From a virus (Duplodnaviria; Heunggongvirae; Uroviricota; Caudoviricetes), in the IMG/VR virus record IMGVR_UViG_2534681939_000019: 10,152 nt of DNA; one strand, written 5' to 3'. The position numbers were made by a program, and so were the translations under genes. Below, one piece after another: positions 1,121-10,152 of the stretch (its first letter is position 1; each line of letters opens with the position of its first letter). The notes under the pieces are model-generated. The model was not told the origin of the DNA. It was given only the letters and a program-made list of their open reading frames with translations, and did not search any database.

Positions 1121-1655
1121 ATGAACGCAAAAATCAGATACGGCCTGTCGGCTGCCGTTCTGGCGCTGATTGCCGCAGGTGCGTCTGCGCCTGAAATCCT
1201 CGACCAGTTTCTGGATGAAAAGGAAGGTAACCACACCACAGCATACCGTGATGGTGCGGGTATCTGGACCATCTGCCGTGGAGCCACCCGGGTGGATGGT
1301 AAGCCTGTTATTCCTGGCATGAAGCTGTCGAAGGAAAAATGCGACCGGGTTAACGCCATTGAGCGTGATAAGGCGCTGGCATGGGTGGAGAAAAACATCA
1401 GAGTGCCACTGACCGAACCCCAGAAAGCGGGGATTGCGTCATTCTGTCCGTACAACATTGGCCCCGGTAAGTGTTTCCCGTCGACGTTTTACAGACGGAT
1501 TAATGCAGGAGATCGAAAAGGTGCCTGCGAAGCTATTACGCTGGTGGATTAAGGACGGTGGCAGGGACTGCCGTATTCGCTCAAATAACTGTTACGGTCA
1601 GGTATCCCGTCGTGACCAGGAGAGCGCGCTGGCGTGCTGGGGAATCGACAGATAA
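1121..1655 (+). pseudogene. R: SAR endolysin R (phage 21 R-like lysozyme), reading frame disrupted near 1538
   Basis: N-terminal signal-anchor-release segment (GLSAAVLALIAAGASA) then lysozyme core through GDRKGACEAI, after which this frame stops at 1550-1552 (TLVD*). The +1 frame continues RWWIKDGGRDCRIRSNNCYGQVSRRDQESALACWGIDR to TAA 1653-1655, matching the expected endolysin C-terminus. Confidence 0.8.
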
Positions 1656-1794
1656 GCAGAATATTTTGCTGAAAAATGAGGTTTGCTTACATGGATGGAT
1701 AACACGAAATCCTGCAAATTGGCAAAATGTAAGTGAATAAAGTCAAAACAGTTGTTTAACACTCAGGCACCGTAATGATGCCTTTGTCATTTCT

Positions 1795-1816
1795 GCGCAT
1801 CTCACGCGCATCTCAC
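1795..1816. repeat. Perfect tandem direct repeat, 2 x 11 bp (GCGCATCTCAC), in the intergenic region upstream of the antirepressor-like gene
   Basis: GCGCATCTCAC at 1795-1805 is repeated exactly at 1806-1816; lies about 110 bp upstream of ATG 1926. Confidence 0.6.
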
Positions 1817-1925
1817 AACACAGAACCTTTCAGGATGACCCTTGAGGATACCGGTTTGGCTGTCGGTGCCTTTCTGTGGGCTGGATTCCTGTGAGACAAG
1901 GTTCATCACTAAAAGGAAATAACCG

Positions 1926-2498
1926 ATGAATATGATGGCCGTGCCGTTTCACGGCAACTCTCTTTATGTAGTTAACCATAATGGCGAACCATACGTTCCC
2001 ATGAAACCTGTCGTTGCGGGGATGGGGCTGGCCTGGCAATCACAGTTGGCTAAGTTAAGACAGCGTTTTGCGTCAACTATAACGGAAATCGTTATGGTTG
2101 CTGAGGATGGGAAACAACGCAATATGGTGTCCATGCCACTTCGAAAACTTGCCGGCTGGCTACAAACCATTAATCCCAACAAAGTAAAACCCGAAATCCG
2201 CGATAAGGTCATCCGGTATCAGGAAGAGTGCGACGATGTTCTTTACGAGTACTGGACGAAGGGTTTTGTCGTTAATCCCCGTAAAATGAGCGTGATGGAA
2301 GAACTCAACCAGGCTTGTGCTGACATGAAACGGGATAAAAACATTGCCAGTGTGTTTGCTACCGGGCTGAATGAGTGGAAACAGGTTAAAGCCGCGCAAT
2401 GTATCAAAAAATCCGTAACGCTGGTAAATGAAGCGAATATGCTGATTGATTTTGTCCTGGCTGATACAGGCAAAGGGAAAATAACAAAGGCGGATTGA
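1926..2498 (+). CDS. Phage antirepressor-like protein (P22 Ant N-terminal-domain type)
   Basis: 190-aa ORF with SD AAGGAAAT 5 nt before the ATG; N-terminus VPFHGNSLYVVNHNGEPYVPMKPVVAGMGLAWQSQ ... PLRKLAGWLQTINPNKVKPEIRDKVIRYQEECDDVLYEYWTKG fits the antirepressor N-terminal domain pattern as recalled. Confidence 0.7.
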   Translation: MNMMAVPFHGNSLYVVNHNGEPYVPMKPVVAGMGLAWQSQLAKLRQRFASTITEIVMVAEDGKQRNMVSMPLRKLAGWLQTINPNKVKPEIRDKVIRYQEECDDVLYEYWTKGFVVNPRKMSVMEELNQACADMKRDKNIASVFATGLNEWKQVKAAQCIKKSVTLVNEANMLIDFVLADTGKGKITKAD

Positions 2499-2620
2499 TG
2501 GGGTGGCTAATGATATCAGATAAACTCATAACGCTGGTGAAGAGCCTCTGTGTACTTGTCGGCATTTCATTTTTAGTCATGCTGGTTGCCATTTTCTTTC
2601 CACCGCCTGGCGAGTCCTGA
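2498..2620 (+). CDS. Candidate small single-pass membrane protein (40 aa), translationally coupled to the antirepressor-like gene
   Basis: ATG 2498 overlaps the upstream TGA (ATGA); alternative ATG at 2510 in the same frame. Product MGWLMISDKLITLVKSLCVLVGISFLVMLVAIFFPPPGES has one hydrophobic helix; too short for the ORF track. Confidence 0.3.
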   Translation: MGWLMISDKLITLVKSLCVLVGISFLVMLVAIFFPPPGES

Positions 2621-2650
2621 CGTTATCGGGACTGGTGGGGTGAAAGAGAG

Positions 2651-3122
2651 ATGAACCGTGTTCTGTGTGTGGTGATTATTGTCATGGCGGTTGGACTGTG
2701 GTGCGCTGTGGCCTGGGCAACAAACCATTACCGTGACTACGCGCTCACCTACAAAGCGCAGCGCGATAAAAAAGCCAGAGAGACTGGAACAGGCGAATGC
2801 CACCATTACTGACATGCAGGTGCGCCAGCGTGATGTTGCTGCGCTCGATGCAAAATACTCGAGGGAATTAGCCGATGCGAGAGCTGAAAATGAAACTCTG
2901 CGTGCTGATGTTGCCGCTGGTCGTAAGCGCCTGCGGATCAACGCCACCTGCCCCGGTACCGTGCGTGAAGCCACCGGCACCTCCGGCGTGGGCAATGATG
3001 CCGCCGTCGAACTCTCTCCGGTTGCTGGACGAAACGTTCTCGGTATCAGAGACGGAATCATCAGCGACCAGGCAGCATTGAGAATGCTTCAGGAATATAT
3101 CCGCACTCAGTGTATTAACTAG
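2651..3122 (+). pseudogene. Rz: Rz i-spanin, reading frame disrupted by an apparent 1-bp insertion near 2783
   Basis: ATG 2651 gives MNRVLCVVIIVMAVGLWCAVAWATNHYRDYALTYKAQRDKKARE (transmembrane N-terminus, lambda Rz-like) then stops at 2810-2812. The +1 frame continues LEQANATITDMQVRQRDVAALDAKYSRELADARAENETLRADVAAGRKRL...EYIRTQCIN to TAG 3120-3122, matching lambda Rz. Confidence 0.8.
2875..3081 (+). CDS. Rz1: Rz1 o-spanin lipoprotein, embedded in the +1 frame of Rz
   Basis: MRELKMKLCVLMLPLVVSACGSTPPAPVPCVKPPAPPAWAMMPP: lipobox LVVSAC and proline-rich segment as in lambda Rz1; lies wholly inside Rz in the +1 frame. Confidence 0.7.
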   Translation: MRELKMKLCVLMLPLVVSACGSTPPAPVPCVKPPAPPAWAMMPPSNSLRLLDETFSVSETESSATRQH

Positions 3123-3146
3123 TATTTTTGTTATTCGGAGAATGCA

Positions 3147-3370
3147 TGAAGAAATTATTGGTAACCGTAAAGCCTTTTCAGGGAACAATTCCGTTCCGTA
3201 TTTTGCAGCGTGGTCGTGTTCTTGTTGAAGGTTCGTTCAGTGGTAAATGTACGCAATTACACTCCAGGACCTTTCAGGTGAATGCCACGAATGAAGAGCT
3301 AACCGTTGAGTGTACGATGAATGCCGCTAAATGCCGCATGGTATCCGCTGCATTACAGCCAGTGTGTTGA
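3147..3370 (+). CDS. Hypothetical small protein (74 aa)
   Basis: ATG 3147 (MKKLLVTVKPFQG...) has GGAGAA 6 nt upstream; it is the internal start of track ORF 3128..3370. No motif recognised and no signal peptide, so it is not Bor-like. Confidence 0.4.
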
Positions 3371-3726
3371 GCGACCTTATTATTCATGCGCGGTATTGTC
3401 GCCGTATTCCTGCATTAACAGAGACCGCAGCCCGACCGGGAGAATCCTCTGCGCGAGTGTGCGGGGATAATCAAAAACGATACACACCGGGGTTTACCGC
3501 GTTAACGGAGCGCGGCGTTGTCCCCTCATGGTCGCTGGTCCGGTGCGATGGTGGAAGAAGCCGGATGTTTATCACTATTAATTGATAACACAGAAATGGA
3601 TTCATTGGTTTTCAGCACGTTTTTGTATTCGTATTATTGAACATCTGTTTATTTTACTTTTAACATATTGATAATAAAAAGAGCTGTAAATCATTAGATG
3701 AGTCGATTTTGTCCGGGGAAGTTCAA

Positions 3727-3879
3727 ATGGATTTTATGCTGACGGTTTCTGGTGTGGTTATCCTGTCCATTGCTTATACTGCAGATAAATATGGCTGCCA
3801 TTTGTTATCACGTATTGGCGCTTATTGCTCGTTGATGCTGATTTCCTCGTCGCTTTTTTTGAGTAAGTTATATTAATTA
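3727..3879 (+). CDS. Candidate small hydrophobic protein (49 aa) inside an AT-rich island
   Basis: ATG 3727 with GGGGAAG 5 nt upstream; product MDFMLTVSGVVILSIAYTADKYGCHLLSRIGAYCSLMLISSSLFLSKLY has two hydrophobic stretches. Short and AT-rich, so it could be spurious. Confidence 0.25.
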
Positions 3880-4001
3880 TAACAAATAATTTTCTGTGTT
3901 TTTTCAGGCTATCCCGTCAGACGGGAAGCCTGTACTGCCGGGGGACGAATGGAAAACTGATGTGTCCGGTAAACTGTGTGTTCTTGTGAACACCATGTTA
4001 C

Positions 4002-4184
4002 TTAATTAATGTAATTCATACCCGAACGCTCTGTTGACAGCCTTCTTCTGCAGGCTTCAATAACCCACGCTGAAAAGTTACCGGAACCTTTATGTTCAAG
4101 GGCGATATTGATCTGTTCAATCATGTGATTGGGGAAACGGATATTGCGGATTGTGGTTCTGCGGGTCCGGTTTTTCGATGACAT
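4002..4184 (-). CDS. Small ribbon-helix-helix-like DNA-binding protein (YlcI/YnfO DUF3950-like)
   Basis: 60-aa minus-strand ORF MSSKNRTRRTTIRNIRFPNHMIEQINIALEHKGSGNFSAWVIEACRRRL...: basic N-terminus, a beta-strand-like RNIRF, then two helices. SD AGAGGAAAG lies just upstream of the ATG on the minus strand. Resemblance to K-12 prophage YlcI/YnfO is from memory. Confidence 0.6.
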   Translation of the reverse strand: MSSKNRTRRTTIRNIRFPNHMIEQINIALEHKGSGNFSAWVIEACRRRLSTERSGMNYIN

Positions 4185-4225
4185 TTTCTTTCCTCTGGTG
4201 ACAAGCTATATGGCGAGGATTTTAC

Positions 4226-4768
4226 ATGGCTGTGCTTCGTACGTTACCGGGCAGAATCAAAACTCTGAACACCCGGCGGATAAATGTCCTGAGGGGGGAA
4301 CAGCGTCGTGTCAGTGGCAGTGCCCGGGTTTCCCTCAAACGTCGTATCTGGCGGAGGGATGCCGGACACTGTTGTCTCTGTAGACGCGTGGTTGACCTTC
4401 GTGACAGTGAACTCGATCACCGCATTGCACTTCAGTTCGGTGGTGGTAATGAGGAGACGAACCTCTGGACCCTCTGTACTGAATGCCATCGCCAGAAGTC
4501 AGCGAGTGAAGCGGCGAGTGGTATGCCTGATCCGACGTTGCCTGAGCTTCCTGATGGCACGCTCAGGGCCGACGGAATCACTCGGCCTGTGACCACGACC
4601 CGGGGGGGGATCATCCGGCGAAAAAAAACGATCGCCCTGGACACCGCGCCCCCTCTCACGCAGAGAAAAAATTCCCGTTTCAGGGCAGTTAACATGTTAA
4701 CTGGCTGCCCGGGCATTTTTGCGGTTTTTATCTTTATTATTCAGTTTGTTGTGCGGAAAAAATGTTAA
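4226..4768 (+). CDS. HNH endonuclease (terminase-associated, HK97 gp74-like) with an unusually long C-terminal tail
   Basis: HNH motif HCCLCRRVVDLRDSELDHRIALQFGGGNEETNLWTLCTECHRQK; SD GAGGA 7 nt before ATG 4226; directly upstream of terS. The last 60-80 codons run through G8 and A8 homopolymers and into the palindrome array, so the true stop is uncertain. Confidence 0.75.
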   Translation: MAVLRTLPGRIKTLNTRRINVLRGEQRRVSGSARVSLKRRIWRRDAGHCCLCRRVVDLRDSELDHRIALQFGGGNEETNLWTLCTECHRQKSASEAASGMPDPTLPELPDGTLRADGITRPVTTTRGGIIRRKKTIALDTAPPLTQRKNSRFRAVNMLTGCPGIFAVFIFIIQFVVRKKC

Positions 4769-4814
4769 CAGGCTTTTTCAGCAAATGTTAACCAGGCAGC
4801 AGTTAACATTTGCG
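4683..4814. repeat. Array of GTTAAC-containing inverted repeats between HNH and terS; candidate cos / terminase recognition region
   Basis: Perfect 18-bp palindrome CAGTTAACATGTTAACTG at 4686-4703; AATGTTAACA at 4761-4770; 12-bp inverted arms GCAAATGTTAAC (4781-4792) and GTTAACATTTGC (4802-4813) around a 9-bp spacer. Five copies of ATGTTAAC-like half-sites lie within about 130 bp. Confidence 0.55.
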
Positions 4815-4883
4815 GCATGAGACGCCGGGAAAAATGGGCTGAACCATACCCGGCTGAGTGCGTTCTGGACCCGGGAGGAGGCT

Positions 4884-5447
4884 GTGCTGACAACGCAAAA
4901 ACGAAAATTTGCGCTGGCGCTCATGTCCGGGAAAAACAAAACAGCGTCAGCCATTGCCGCCGGTTATTCGGCGAAGACCGCCAGGGTTAAAGGCTCGCAG
5001 CTGGCAAAAGATCCTGAGGTGCTTGCGTTTATAGCCCGTAAACAATGCGAGACGGTGGAGGTGGATGAGGTTCCTGTTTACCGGCAGAAAAAATCAGAGC
5101 AGGAGGATAAACCCCGTCGCCGTGAGGCGGCTGCAATACCACAGCCGGACGAAAACAATCTGGAGATGCCACCGTCCGCGGTGATGTCTCCTGGTATTGA
5201 ATATATGGAGGATGGTCTTCCCGATCCGGTGAAAGCCATGGGGCGGATCCTGGTGGAAAACCTCTGCATTGATCCGAAACTGGCACTGGATGCGGCCTGG
5301 CGTCTGGCGCAGTTCACGCACCATAAAAAAGGGGATACCGGGAAAAAATCGGCAAAAGGTGATGCCGCGAAAAAAGCGGCTAACCGTTTTGCGGTGCCAC
5401 CGCCACCCCGACTGGTGGTGAATAACGATAATGAGGGCAACGGATGA
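4884..5447 (+). CDS. terS: Terminase small subunit (Terminase_2-like, N-terminal HTH)
   Basis: MLTTQKRKFALALMSGKNKTASAIAAGYSAKTARVKGSQLAKDPEVLAFI fits the TerS HTH pattern (AGYS.KTA...GS.L). GTG 4884 follows GGGAGGAGG (4873-4881); an in-frame ATG at 4833 is an alternative start without a good SD. Stop overlaps the terL start (ATGA at 5444-5447). Confidence 0.8.
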   Translation: MLTTQKRKFALALMSGKNKTASAIAAGYSAKTARVKGSQLAKDPEVLAFIARKQCETVEVDEVPVYRQKKSEQEDKPRRREAAAIPQPDENNLEMPPSAVMSPGIEYMEDGLPDPVKAMGRILVENLCIDPKLALDAAWRLAQFTHHKKGDTGKKSAKGDAAKKAANRFAVPPPPRLVVNNDNEGNG

Positions 5448-7105
5448 TACCTGTATGGAGCACAGCCTGCCCGGACTGGGCAGAGCGCCTGAAAAAGGGG
5501 CTGTCGATTATTCCGGATCCGATTTATCCGGACGAGGCCGCACATGCCCTGGCGATTTTTAAACAACTGCGGATTGTGGATGCACCTGGTAGCCCTACGT
5601 TCGGGGAGTCCTGTGCACCGTGGGTGTTTGACCTGGTGGCGGCCCTGTTTGGCTCCTACGATGCGCAGACCGGTGTACGCCATATCAAGGAAGTTTTTAT
5701 CCTTATCCCCAAGAAAAACAGCAAGTCCACGCTGGCCGCGGGGATCATGATGACTGCACTGTTACTGAACTGGCGGCAGGCGGCGGGTTACACGATTCTG
5801 GCCCCGACTGTGGAGGTGGCGGCCAACGCCTTCAACCCTGCCCGGGATATGGTACGACGGGACGATGATCTGGATGACCTCTGCCAGGTACAGACCCATA
5901 TCCGGACCATCACCCACCGGGTGACGGACACCACCCTGAAGGTGGTGGCAGCCGATCCGAATACGGTGTCCGGTATCAAGTCCGTGGGTACGCTGATTGA
6001 TGAGTTGTGGCTGTTTGGCAAGCAGTGCAAGGCGGAGGACATGTTACGTGAAGCCATAGGCGGCCTTGCCTCCCGCCCGGAAGGGTTTGTGGTGTATACG
6101 ACCACCCAGTCGAATGAACCGCCCGCCGGGGTGTTCAGACAGAAACTGCAGTACGCCCGGGATGTGCGCGACGGCAAAATTCATGATCCGCACTTTCTGC
6201 CGGTGATATTTGAACACCCTCCTGAAATGGTGGAAAGCGGGGCTAACCTGCTGATGGAAAACCTCGCCATGGTCAATCCGAATCTCGGCTATTCAGTGGA
6301 TGAGGCCTTTCTGTACCGGGAGTACCGTAAAGCCCGGGAAGCCGGTGAAGAGACATTCCGGGGGTTCATGTCAAAACACGCCAATGTGGAAATTGGTCTT
6401 GCCCTGCGCTCTGACCGCTGGGCGGGGGCTGATTTCTGGGAAGAGCAGGGCCGTTGTATCAGCCTGGACGATATCCTGCGTCGTGCTGATGTGGTGACGG
6501 TGGGGATTGACGGCGGAGGGCTGGATGATCTGCTGGGGATGTATGTGATTGGGCGTGACCGGGAGACCCGCGAATGGCTGGGCTGGGGCCATGCCTGGGC
6601 GCATGGAACCGCGGTGGTCAGACGGAAGAGTGAGGCATCCCGTTTTCAGGATTTTGTGGCCTGTGGAGACATGACGATTGTCCGTCGGGTCGGGGATGAC
6701 ACGGCGGAAGTGGCGGAATATGTGCGTCGCATTCATGAGGCTGAGTTACTGGACCATATCGGTATTGACCCGTCAGGTGTGGGGCAGATTCTGGATTCAC
6801 TGGCGGAAGCCGGGATCCCCGACGGAATTGTTGTGGGGATAAGCCAGGGCTGGAAGCTGGGCGGGGCCATTAAAACCACCGAGCGCAAACTGGCTGAGGG
6901 AGTACTGGTGCATGGTGGTCAGCCACTGATGGCCTGGTGCGTTGGCAATGCCCGGGTGGAGCCTAAAGGTAACGCTATCCTTATTACCAAACAGGCCAGC
7001 GGACGGGGGAAAATTGACCCGCTGATGGCGCTCTTCAATGCGGTCTCCCTGATGTCCCTTAACCCGGAACCGAAAAAGAAAGAATATGCGGTTTTTTTCA
7101 TATAA
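5444..7105 (+). CDS. terL: Terminase large subunit (ATPase plus nuclease)
   Basis: 553-aa ORF; P-loop-like LIPKKNSKST near the N-terminus, acidic patches in the ATPase region, C-terminal nuclease region with VTVGIDGGG and DPSG. Translationally coupled to terS. Confidence 0.9.
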   Translation: MIPVWSTACPDWAERLKKGLSIIPDPIYPDEAAHALAIFKQLRIVDAPGSPTFGESCAPWVFDLVAALFGSYDAQTGVRHIKEVFILIPKKNSKSTLAAGIMMTALLLNWRQAAGYTILAPTVEVAANAFNPARDMVRRDDDLDDLCQVQTHIRTITHRVTDTTLKVVAADPNTVSGIKSVGTLIDELWLFGKQCKAEDMLREAIGGLASRPEGFVVYTTTQSNEPPAGVFRQKLQYARDVRDGKIHDPHFLPVIFEHPPEMVESGANLLMENLAMVNPNLGYSVDEAFLYREYRKAREAGEETFRGFMSKHANVEIGLALRSDRWAGADFWEEQGRCISLDDILRRADVVTVGIDGGGLDDLLGMYVIGRDRETREWLGWGHAWAHGTAVVRRKSEASRFQDFVACGDMTIVRRVGDDTAEVAEYVRRIHEAELLDHIGIDPSGVGQILDSLAEAGIPDGIVVGISQGWKLGGAIKTTERKLAEGVLVHGGQPLMAWCVGNARVEPKGNAILITKQASGRGKIDPLMALFNAVSLMSLNPEPKKKEYAVFFI

Positions 7106-7130
7106 CCCTGTTCACACTGTAACCATCACG

Positions 7131-7155
7131 AACCGCTCCGGCGGTTTTTTATTTT
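7131..7155 (+). terminator. Small hairpin plus U-tract between terL and the protease gene (possible attenuator)
   Basis: AACCGC (7131-7136), loop TCCG, GCGGTT (7141-7146), then TTTTATTTT; overlaps the protease SD AGGAGG (7157-7162). Confidence 0.35.
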
Positions 7156-7167
7156 CAGGAGGCTGAT

Positions 7168-7746
7168 GTGACTCTTAAACGGGCCTGTTCCCTGCTGACG
7201 GTGAAATCCTTCAGCGAGGATGAACGGGTGATCACCGGGATTGCGTCAACGCCTTCTCCGGATCGGGATGGTGACATCCTGGAGCCGGAGGGGGCGGAGT
7301 TTGGCTGTGCGATCCCGTTTCTCTGGCAGCATGACTATTCCCGTCCGGTGGGCCAGTGTACGGTACGCCGGGTCAGTGAAGGTCTGGAAATCACGGCAAC
7401 ACTGGTGAAGCCCGTACCGGATATGCCGTCGCAACTGGCTGCCCGGCTGGATGAGGCCTGGGCGGCCATTAAGACCGGGCTGGTCAGGGGGCTGTCCGTG
7501 GGCTTCCGTCCCCATGAATACACCTCTCTGGACGGAGGCGGACTGCATTTTCTGCGCTGGGAACTGATGGAGGTGTCTGCCGTCACCGTGCCCGCGAATG
7601 CGGAATGCACCATCCGGACCATTAAATCTTACGACCGCCCGTTTTCTGCCGCGTCCGGCAACCGGAAACCGGTGGTGAAAATCGCATCTTCTGCCGGCGC
7701 TGCGGCACAGTCAACAACCGCTTTTCATAAGGAAAAGACAGAATGA
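7168..7746 (+). CDS. HK97-family prohead protease (peptidase S78/U35)
   Basis: GTG 7168 with AGGAGG 5 nt upstream; VITGIASTPSPDRDGDILEPEG ... FLWQHD ... GLSVGFRPHEY ... MEVSAVTVPANAECTI is the typical motif order of the HK97 protease family. Confidence 0.85.
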   Translation: MTLKRACSLLTVKSFSEDERVITGIASTPSPDRDGDILEPEGAEFGCAIPFLWQHDYSRPVGQCTVRRVSEGLEITATLVKPVPDMPSQLAARLDEAWAAIKTGLVRGLSVGFRPHEYTSLDGGGLHFLRWELMEVSAVTVPANAECTIRTIKSYDRPFSAASGNRKPVVKIASSAGAAAQSTTAFHKEKTE

Positions 7747-7812
7747 ATATTGGCGAACAGATAAAAGTTTTGAAACAAGCGTGCGGCGCTGGCAGCCTCC
7801 CTTGAGGAGGTC

Positions 7813-9102
7813 ATGACCAAAGCCGCAGAGGAAGGGCGCACGCTGGATGTGGAGGAGGAAGAGCATTACGACAACACCGCAGCGGAAATCCGTCAGGTGG
7901 ATGCGCACCTGAAGCGCCTGCGTGAACTGGAAGCCGGTAAGGCCGCCACGGCGCAGCCGGTGAAACAGGCCGGTAACGGGAATGTGGCCGCGGTGGCTTC
8001 TGCGCCGGTGATCCGTGTGGAGCAGAAACTGGATAAGGGGATTGGCTTCGCCCGCTTTGCCAAATCGCTGGCTGCGGCTAAAGGCGTCCGATCTGAAGCC
8101 CTGGAAGTGGCCCGTCGTCAGTATCCGGATGACAGTCGTCTGCATCATGTCCTGAAATCGGCAGTGGGCGCAGGGACCACCACGGATCCACAGTGGGCAG
8201 GCAGCCTGTCTGAATATCAGGAATACGCACAGGACTTTATTGATTACCTGCGTCCGCAGACCATTATCGGGCGATTTGGTCAGGGCGGGATCCCTGCACT
8301 TCGTCAGGTGCCATTCAATATCCGCGTGCACGCCCAGGTGTCCGGCGGTGCTGCCGGCTGGGTGGGGGAGGGTAAGGCAAAACCCCTGACGAAGTTTGAT
8401 TTTGAATCCATCACCTTCAGTCATGCGAAGGTGTCGGCCATTGCGGTACTGACGGAAGAACTGATCCGCTTTTCCAGTCCGGCAGCTGATGCACTGGTCC
8501 GTAATGCGCTGGCAGAAGCGGTGGTGGCGCGTCTGGACACAGACTTTGTGGACCCGAAAAAAGCTGCAGTGGCAGATGTCTCCCCGGCGTCCATCACCCA
8601 TGATGTGAAGGGCACGGCATCAACCGGTAACCCGGATGCGGATGCCGAGGCCGCGTTTGGCCAGTTTGTGACGGCAAATCTGCAGCCCACCGGTGCTGTC
8701 TGGCTGATGTCCAGCACCAATGCCCTGGCACTGTCCATGCGTAAAAATGCGCTGGGTCAGAAGGAATATCCGGACATGACCCTGCTGGGCGGGATCTTTC
8801 AGGGGCTTCCGGTGATTGTCTCCCAGTATGTGGGTGACCAGCTGGTGCTGGTGAATGCCCCGGATATTTATCTGGCGGATGACGGCGGCGTGGCAGTGGA
8901 TATGTCCCGCGAAGCATCACTGGAAATGCAGTCTGAGCCGACCGGCGACAGTACCACGCCGTCCCCGGTGGAGCTGGTTTCCATGTTCCAGACAGGCAGC
9001 GTGGCCATCCGTGCGGAGCGCTGGATCAACTGGCGTCGTCGCCGTACTGCGGCGGTGGCGGTGATCACCGGAGTGAACTACGGCAGTGCGTCCGGCGGCT
9101 GA
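7813..9102 (+). CDS. HK97-fold major capsid protein; the true N-terminus probably starts at ATG 7743 in another frame (apparent frameshift)
   Basis: 429-aa ORF with a coiled-coil-like N-terminal delta region (EIRQVDAHLKRLRELEAG) and Gly/Ala-rich capsid body, placed directly after the protease. ATG 7743 overlaps the protease stop (ATGA) and encodes MNIGEQIKVLKQ before a frame change near 7773-7776. Confidence 0.85.
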   Translation: MTKAAEEGRTLDVEEEEHYDNTAAEIRQVDAHLKRLRELEAGKAATAQPVKQAGNGNVAAVASAPVIRVEQKLDKGIGFARFAKSLAAAKGVRSEALEVARRQYPDDSRLHHVLKSAVGAGTTTDPQWAGSLSEYQEYAQDFIDYLRPQTIIGRFGQGGIPALRQVPFNIRVHAQVSGGAAGWVGEGKAKPLTKFDFESITFSHAKVSAIAVLTEELIRFSSPAADALVRNALAEAVVARLDTDFVDPKKAAVADVSPASITHDVKGTASTGNPDADAEAAFGQFVTANLQPTGAVWLMSSTNALALSMRKNALGQKEYPDMTLLGGIFQGLPVIVSQYVGDQLVLVNAPDIYLADDGGVAVDMSREASLEMQSEPTGDSTTPSPVELVSMFQTGSVAIRAERWINWRRRRTAAVAVITGVNYGSASGG

Positions 9103-9116
9103 GTCTGATAAGGAGG

Positions 9117-9138
9117 ACGGGAGGCGTGCGCCTCCCGT
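9117..9138 (+). other. GC-rich 22-bp palindrome / stem-loop immediately downstream of the major capsid gene
   Basis: ACGGGAGGCG (9117-9126) and CGCCTCCCGT (9129-9138) are perfect reverse complements around a 2-nt centre; no U-tract follows. Confidence 0.45.
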
Positions 9139-9146
9139 AACAGGTT

Positions 9147-9368
9147 ATGGCAAAGATCCGATATCTGCAGGGCACGCATGATGCCCGGCCCGGGGATATC
9201 CGGGATGTCGCACAGCCGTGTGCGGAGGTGCTGGTTCGCCTGAGGAAGGCGGAGTACATCACAGCGCGACGTCCGGCGGGTCAGAAAAAGAAACATGATG
9301 CGGAGCATAGCGAATGTGGAACTTTTTGCGACGAACCCGAAAAAACCAGAAATCAGGACGTGATGTAA
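9147..9368 (+). CDS. Hypothetical small protein (73 aa) between capsid and portal genes
   Basis: Track ORF MAKIRYLQGTHDARPGDIRDVAQPCAEVLVRLRKAEYI...; weak SD; overlaps the predicted portal start by about 55 nt, so it may be shorter or not real. Confidence 0.35.
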   Translation: MAKIRYLQGTHDARPGDIRDVAQPCAEVLVRLRKAEYITARRPAGQKKKHDAEHSECGTFCDEPEKTRNQDVM

Positions 9369-10152
9369 AAGAGGCGGGCTGGACCAGCCTGTTTCAGGCG
9401 GTGGCTGAGCCCTTTGCCGGCGCCTGGCAGCAGGGTGTGAAAGCCGATCCGGAAAGTGTCCTCTCCTTTCATGCGGTGTTTGCATGCATTTCGCTGATAT
9501 CCCAGGATATCGCCAAAATGCGGCTGCGTCTTATGCAGACGGATGCGCATGGGATACGCAGGGAAACGCGCCGGGGGGATATTGCCCGCCTCTGTCGTCG
9601 TCCCAACGCCCAGCAGAACCGCATCCAGTTTTTTGAACTGTGGCTGAACGCCAAACTGCGTCATGGCAATACGGTGGTGCTGAAAATCCGTAATGCCCGG
9701 GGGCAGATCAAAGAACTGCGTATTCTGGACTGGAGCCGGGTTGAACCTCTGGTGGCGGATGACGGCGAGGTGTTCTACCGCATCACACCGGACCGGAACT
9801 GCGGGATCACGGAGGCGGTGACGGTGCCTGCCAGGGAAGTGATCCACGACCGGTTTAACTGTTTTTTTCATCCGCTTATAGGACTGCCGCCGGTGTATGC
9901 CGCCGGGCTGGCGGCCACGCAGGGGCATCATATTCAGGAAAATTCGACGTCTTTTTTCAGAAATGGCGGCAGGCCGTCCGGGGTGATTGAGATCCCCGGC
10001 AGTATTACGGAAGAAAATGCGAAAAAACTGAAGAGCAACTGGGACAGCGGGTATACAGGCGAAAATGCGGGGAAAACGGCCATTCTGAGCAACGGGGCAA
10101 AATACAACCCCACGACGTTTTCACCTGTGGATGCGCAGACGGTGGAACAACT
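9314..10152 (+). CDS. Portal protein (HK97-family), 5' part; continues beyond the window end
   Basis: Frame is open from ATG 9314 to the window end with no stop: MWNFLRRTRKNQKSGRDVKEAGWTSLFQ ... SFHAVFACISLISQDIAKMRLRL ... FFRNGGRPSGVIEIPGSITEENAKKLKSNWDSGYTGENAGKTAILSNGAKYNPTTFSPVDAQTVEQ. The FRNGxRPSG and ENAGK blocks are characteristic of portal proteins. Confidence 0.85.
   Translation, partial: MWNFLRRTRKNQKSGRDVKEAGWTSLFQAVAEPFAGAWQQGVKADPESVLSFHAVFACISLISQDIAKMRLRLMQTDAHGIRRETRRGDIARLCRRPNAQQNRIQFFELWLNAKLRHGNTVVLKIRNARGQIKELRILDWSRVEPLVADDGEVFYRITPDRNCGITEAVTVPAREVIHDRFNCFFHPLIGLPPVYAAGLAATQGHHIQENSTSFFRNGGRPSGVIEIPGSITEENAKKLKSNWDSGYTGENAGKTAILSNGAKYNPTTFSPVDAQTVEQ

Follow-up and report, generated by a model that had tools for sequence, protein, structure and literature searches.

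In phage lambda, the outer-membrane step of lysis involves two spanin subunits, Rz and Rz1, and the whole Rz1 gene is contained in Rz, in the +1 frame. When either subunit is defective, lysis stops at the outer membrane and the cells persist as spheres stabilised by Mg2+. Rz loses its activity when shortened by as few as two residues; residues C99 and C152 of Rz and C29 of Rz1 form homodimer disulfides (PMC5295617). Closer to the locus described here, an intact Rz of 155 aa (WP_001082691.1, 'lysis protein') is encoded by lambdoid prophages of E. coli O157:H7 and by phage PPyecE_EH1910 (rzpD), and at these loci the gene neighbourhood is the same as in our sequence from holin through terminase.

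The window, that is the whole stretch of DNA analysed (10,152 nt), was identified through exact protein matches and a locus table as the entire 10,152-bp contig AIFJ01000017.1 of assembly GCA_000249355.2, the draft genome of E. coli DEC3F (O157:H7). Its genes follow the order of EHEC lambdoid prophages: holin, YdfR, lysozyme, antirepressor, a 48-aa ORF and Rz/Rz1, followed by a 74-aa ORF, YlcI/YnfO, HNH, TerS, TerL, a protease-capsid fusion and portal. The Rz/Rz1 locus has the usual lambda-type layout, an embedded two-component spanin cassette with Rz1 inside Rz, and is part of one of the numerous lambdoid prophages found in E. coli O157:H7; among the matches listed, the 601-bp Rz region had 6 to 11 near-identical copies per O157:H7 genome. 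The architecture of Rz/Rz1 is like that of lambda. Unlike in lambda, the antirepressor gene and the 48-aa ORF stand between endolysin and Rz, as in Stx-type prophages. The 74-aa ORF at 3146-3370 (MKKLLVTVKPFQG...), directly after Rz, is identical in finished relatives, has no Pfam match and occupies the slot where lambda has bor, there on the opposite strand. The features of the spanin locus are as follows.

2651 to 2812, plus strand: 5' fragment of Rz (i-spanin), 53 aa, with ATG start and a TGA stop at 2810-2812; GenBank EHU94484.1.
2695 to 2738, plus strand: patch of private changes in the coding region of the Rz membrane segment (+A at 2695, +C at 2712, +G at 2715 and A>T at 2738, giving N30Y).
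2783, plus strand: extra, frame-shifting A, GAGAG[A]CTGG against GAGAGCTGG without the extra A.
2784 to 3122, plus strand: 3' part of Rz, the periplasmic coiled-coil, residues 45-155 of the intact protein, with a stop at 3120-3122.
2814 to 3122, plus strand: 102-aa ORF with ATG start (MQVRQRD...), the Rz body without its membrane anchor; EHU94476.1 in the record.
2875 to 3081, plus strand: intact gene for the Rz1 o-spanin lipoprotein, embedded in the +1 frame of the Rz body; PF06085.

Unlike in lambda, the DEC3F Rz ORF as deposited is split after codon 44 by one extra base. The 5' fragment encodes the hydrophobic N-terminal membrane segment (approximately 2660-2722) and the start of the periplasmic part. 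Its 53-aa product, MNRVLCVVIIVMAVGLWCAVAWATNHYRDYALTYKAQRDKKARE followed by TGTGECHHY and a stop, has 44 residues homologous to Rz, which include the Rz motif NHYRD..YKAQRDKKARE, and then nine out-of-frame residues. The Rz body (..RLEQANATITDMQVRQRD...RTQCIN and a stop) sits in the +1 frame, open from 2679, and the ATG of the 102-aa ORF at 2814 lies 1 nt beyond the TGA of the 5' fragment. Alignment with lambda Rz, as proposed by the initial annotation of this DNA, and with the intact 155-aa O157 Rz placed the frame junction exactly between E44 and L45. Past the junction the Rz body starts LEQANATITDMQ, and the 3' frame aligned with lambda Rz residues 45-153. The 3' frame matched PF03245 (Phage_lysis) with E = 7.9e-38 and 130 bits (cut-off 25.4), and the repaired Rz protein matched the same family at E = 2e-39. 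The initial annotation had placed the Rz membrane segment and the periplasmic coiled-coil in different frames, and the Pfam matches and alignments bear out both the frames and the gene identities. It had put an extra base at about 2783; in the DNA alignment this position is exact, a single A at 2783 within GAGAGACTGG. The deposited sequence has no single ORF joining the transmembrane anchor to the periplasmic domain, the layout of a type II inner-membrane protein, and such an ORF was seen in all relatives examined. Its absence from the deposited sequence is probably an artefact.

The embedded Rz1 gene, which the same annotation had described as intact in the +1 frame, is exactly that. It matched PF06085 with E = 6.9e-21 and 74.2 bits, its frame offset relative to the Rz body is +1 (2875 - 2679 = 196, or 1 modulo 3), and all 68 of its 68 aa are identical to Rz1 of intact relatives. 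The exact protein was present on at least about 998 contigs. In DEC3F Rz1 the lipobox is LVVSAC, its Cys20 encoded at 2932-2934; another Cys follows at residue 30, and the protein also contains the motif PPAPPAW. It is 52% identical to lambda Rz1, with which it has the lipobox Cys20 and the proline-rich PPxPPAW motif in common, and its Cys in PVPC aligns with lambda C29; its C-terminus is 8 residues longer than that of lambda Rz1, as in all close relatives. The repaired DEC3F Rz is 58% identical to lambda Rz, the N-terminal membrane segment and NHYRD..YKAQRDK being common to both, and its Cys residues (in INATC and RTQC) align with lambda C99 and C152.

Compared with the intact O157 Rz, the DEC3F gene carries more than the extra A. 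Beyond what the initial annotation had noted, the same gene has private insertions at 2695, 2712 and 2715 and a private substitution at 2738, so that four private one-base insertions and one private substitution all fall within 2695-2783 (approximately 90 bp). The insertions at 2695, 2712 and 2715 add up to +3 and re-frame the region locally, to GLWCAVAWA instead of GCGALWLA. When four close relatives were aligned, the differences in 2600-3200 were exactly these four insertions and one substitution. The 347 bases of 2784-3130 are identical in DNA to two finished O157:H7 genomes and to strain FORC_042, and PPyecE_EH1910 differs by one base across them. The Rz differences are confined to a local patch and give way to 347 bases that match finished genomes exactly, a pattern that marks sequence error in local stretches of low quality and not evolutionary decay.

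Among the public sequences checked, the extra A at 2783 is private to one draft contig. No match to 2600-3200 better than 99.2% was found in 5,426 complete E. coli genomes. Among approximately 15 billion proteins, the 53-aa fragment was found on one contig, the DEC3F contig itself, and the 52-aa product predicted from the extra A on the standard N-terminus was absent; the intact 155-aa Rz was on at least 998 contigs of the same protein collection. In IMG/VR the extra base occurred in none of the matches to the site (61 of 61 intact), and in metagenome contigs none had the extra A and ten were without it. The GTDB species-representative genomes held neither the shifted nor the intact allele and are hence uninformative.

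The same counts bear on the possibility that the two-frame layout is functional, through +1 recoding when the ribosome or the RNA polymerase slips at the A6 run (2768-2773). Such a slip has a route, as the +1 frame is open from 2679 and tRNA-Lys paired with AAA could shift by one base to the AAG downstream; the product, ...QRDKK-PER-LEQANA..., would have the intact length with three residues changed (ARE to PER). We regard this as very improbable. The two-frame layout occurs in no relative, a single ORF being found in all 61 IMG/VR matches, in all 10 metagenome matches and on at least 998 contigs, and the arrangement thus has none of the conservation by which programmed recoding is recognised. 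The codons at the junction itself, AGA GAG ACU, do not permit +1 re-pairing, and six A in a row are few for slippage to be efficient. Programmed frameshifting, brought to mind by the A6 run just upstream, was rejected on this complete lack of conservation. There is likewise only a slight chance that the extra A is real and that full-length Rz is made at a low level by a transcriptional or translational +1 slip at the A6 run, 10 nt upstream. If so, DEC3F would carry a leaky spanin allele, and its prophage would rupture the outer membrane later or less strongly.

We then compared the whole window with finished genomes. Relative to the closest of these, O157:H7 493/89 (98.6% identity), 14 single bases are inserted and 7 are deleted in the window. 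The 17-mers centred on the 26 private differences (21 indels and 5 substitutions) had no occurrence in 75 related loci (586 kb), and the flanking 17-mers occurred up to 70 times in those loci, except where a flank overlapped another private site or few loci covered the region. Over 1600-6200, the window differed from three close finished relatives by 13 gap openings and 9-18 mismatches, and from a fourth, PPyecE_EH1910, by 14 gap openings and 109 mismatches. When the four finished relatives were compared with each other across these 4.6 kb, gap openings numbered 0-1 and mismatches 6-103. The indel excess of the window over this finished-versus-finished baseline was highly significant (Fisher p = 1.7e-15).

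Several other genes of the window are altered, and none of its genes has a nonsense substitution. In the class II holin gene (507-721), a missing G at 556 causes a frameshift, and the truncated product is absent from the protein collection. In the lysozyme gene (1121-1655), an extra A at 1538 leaves a protein of 143 aa that ends ...ACEAITLVD and a stop instead of ...ACEAIRWWIKDGG.... The antirepressor has a short re-framed patch at 2398/2406/2417, and YlcI/YnfO and HNH are changed at their ends (at 4008 and 4583, respectively); the lysozyme, antirepressor and YlcI variants are protein singletons, confined to the DEC3F contig. The 48-aa membrane ORF (2498-2643), in the interval between antirepressor and Rz, lacks a T near 2596 (in the stretch TTTTCTTT), which shortens it to 40 aa. 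The exact 40-aa product was found on 7 contigs, 6 besides that of DEC3F and among them a finished 5.75-Mb chromosome, and this deletion may be a real allele. The gene for the protease-major capsid fusion (7168-9102) has one-base deletions at 7738, 7761 and 7772, within 35 nt, with a net change of -3 and three stop codons between (..KEKTE stop ILANR stop KF stop NKR..). Altogether, 15 of the 21 indels are grouped in five sets of three with the same sign (2398-2417, 2695-2715, 3971-4008, 4583-4602 and 7738-7772), each with a net change of +3 or -3 that re-frames a few codons.

The right-hand part of the contig differs from finished genomes in another way. For 6400-10152, which covers the TerL end, the capsid gene, a 73-aa ORF and the portal start, the best identity among the 5,426 finished E. 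coli genomes was 97.6%, although O157:H7 is well covered among them; this part is 3,753 nt long in the window, and the full-length matches listed were all 3,757 nt (one of 3,758 nt). An identity of at most 97.6% for the capsid region argues against the contig being a true copy of a single prophage. The right-hand part is a mosaic, and rebuilding it from 10 alleles took 46 switches, many of them at single sites and mostly between alleles like those of the 493/89 and PPompW prophages. This pattern suggests that the right-hand third may be a collapsed consensus of several prophage copies. The portal gene (approximately 9314 to the end of the window) is flagged as 'frameshifted' by RefSeq in two independent finished genomes (L003, 9807-11145, and L004, 9813-11151), where it overlaps the 73-aa ORF, and in phage records it is either approximately 1.4 kb or approximately 2.6 kb long. 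The flag may reflect a conserved two-frame feature or an annotation habit.

The private one-base indels thus exceed substitutions across the contig and break otherwise conserved genes, and for this reason we read the A that splits Rz as most probably a sequencing or assembly error, made in base calling or consensus building of a draft contig of low quality, rather than a mutation of DEC3F itself. We infer that reads of several copies of the lysis-terminase-capsid module covered by the contig, or low-quality read ends, may have been merged into one consensus, and such merging would give both the patches of single-base indels and the fine-grained mixture of alleles. A 10-kb contig over a multi-copy module is a place where a mixed consensus is expected. 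DEC3F reads would likely be without the extra base at 2783.

Some observations sit less easily with an error. The A at 2783 extends no homopolymer. Nine of the 14 insertions lengthen a run; chance alone would give roughly 44%, and the excess is not a clear one, which leaves the classic signature of homopolymer error weak. The five same-sign triplets are not predicted by purely random error and count against a simple artefact; our best guess is that they come from misaligned mixtures of paralogous reads or from low-quality read ends. The recurrence of the 40-aa product on other contigs means that not every difference need be an error. In L013, a contig of another DEC strain over the same module, indels occur only near its ends, and because it is otherwise clean, the noise is specific to the DEC3F contig and not project-wide. 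A homopolymer or 454 flow-order signature was considered as evidence and dropped, as run extension is near chance; the non-homopolymer insertions fit the TACG flow order, in a test with almost no power.

The alternative is that the extra A is genuine, and that Rz is a pseudogene of a decaying lambdoid prophage in which Rz1 happens still to be intact. This is the kind of event that other genomes do contain. Independent disruptions of Rz that keep the Rz1 region were present in L005, L007, L008 to L012 and L014 (Rz at approximately 1340-1809 of each): insertions of IS3-family elements or IS1 in L005, L007 and L009, a GAG>TAG change at Rz codon 44 in L011, the loss of one A from the A6 run of Rz in L012 and L014, and a 1-bp deletion in a divergent Rz allele in L008 and L010. 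Seven independently disrupted copies of the same Rz allele were found in other genomes. The cryptic prophage Rac of K-12 similarly has an Rz-like pseudogene, rzpR, with an intact Rz1-like gene, rzoR. Loss of Rz in resident prophages is therefore recurrent and commonplace, and clearly real disruptions of the same allele lend the alternative support. Inactivation of prophage lysis genes is also frequent; in the closest prophage copy, that of O157:H7 PV15-279 (L001, 726-1939), IS1203 is inserted in the lysozyme gene, which is a genuine lysis-gene knock-out in a finished genome. The allele with the T deleted near 2596 also recurs in other assemblies.

The DEC3F lesion resembles these disrupted alleles in that Rz is inactivated and the embedded Rz1 frame persists. 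It differs from them in its surroundings: the IS insertions, the nonsense codon and the loss of an A from the A6 run lie in otherwise clean sequence, some of them in more than one assembly, whereas that of DEC3F is unique and stands among private indels. Despite the clonality of O157:H7 and the intensity with which it has been sequenced, no other genome has any of the private changes. The surplus of one-base indels relative to substitutions does not resemble the way in which finished genomes diverge over this region. A mutational path on which three neighbouring indels of one sign restore the frame, five times over, is implausible, and the low best identity of the capsid region argues that the contig does not reproduce any single prophage faithfully. 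On balance, a genuine mutation at 2783 appears unlikely. If it were real, the only Rz products of the locus would be the membrane-anchored stub of 53 aa and, at most, a 102-aa fragment in the cytoplasm, neither of them a functional i-spanin; this prophage copy would be unable to complete lysis on its own. Rz would then be an ordinary pseudogene in an already dead prophage and not its limiting defect, because the holin, endolysin and capsid genes are also broken in the sequence.

Collectively, these results confirm the split of Rz in the deposited sequence and indicate that it is most likely not biology. The initial annotation had read the frameshift as a biological loss of Rz, a reading that does not fit an extra A that is private, lies in a 90-bp patch and is one of 21 single-base indels. 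Frameshifts in small, repeat-derived draft contigs should not be read as gene loss, a caution that holds above all for EHEC with its multi-copy lambdoid prophage modules. In GenBank each of the two Rz fragments already has its own protein entry (EHU94484.1 and EHU94476.1), and such singletons pollute protein databases. Should the mutation be real, it would be one more decayed prophage lysis gene, of a kind that is already commonplace.
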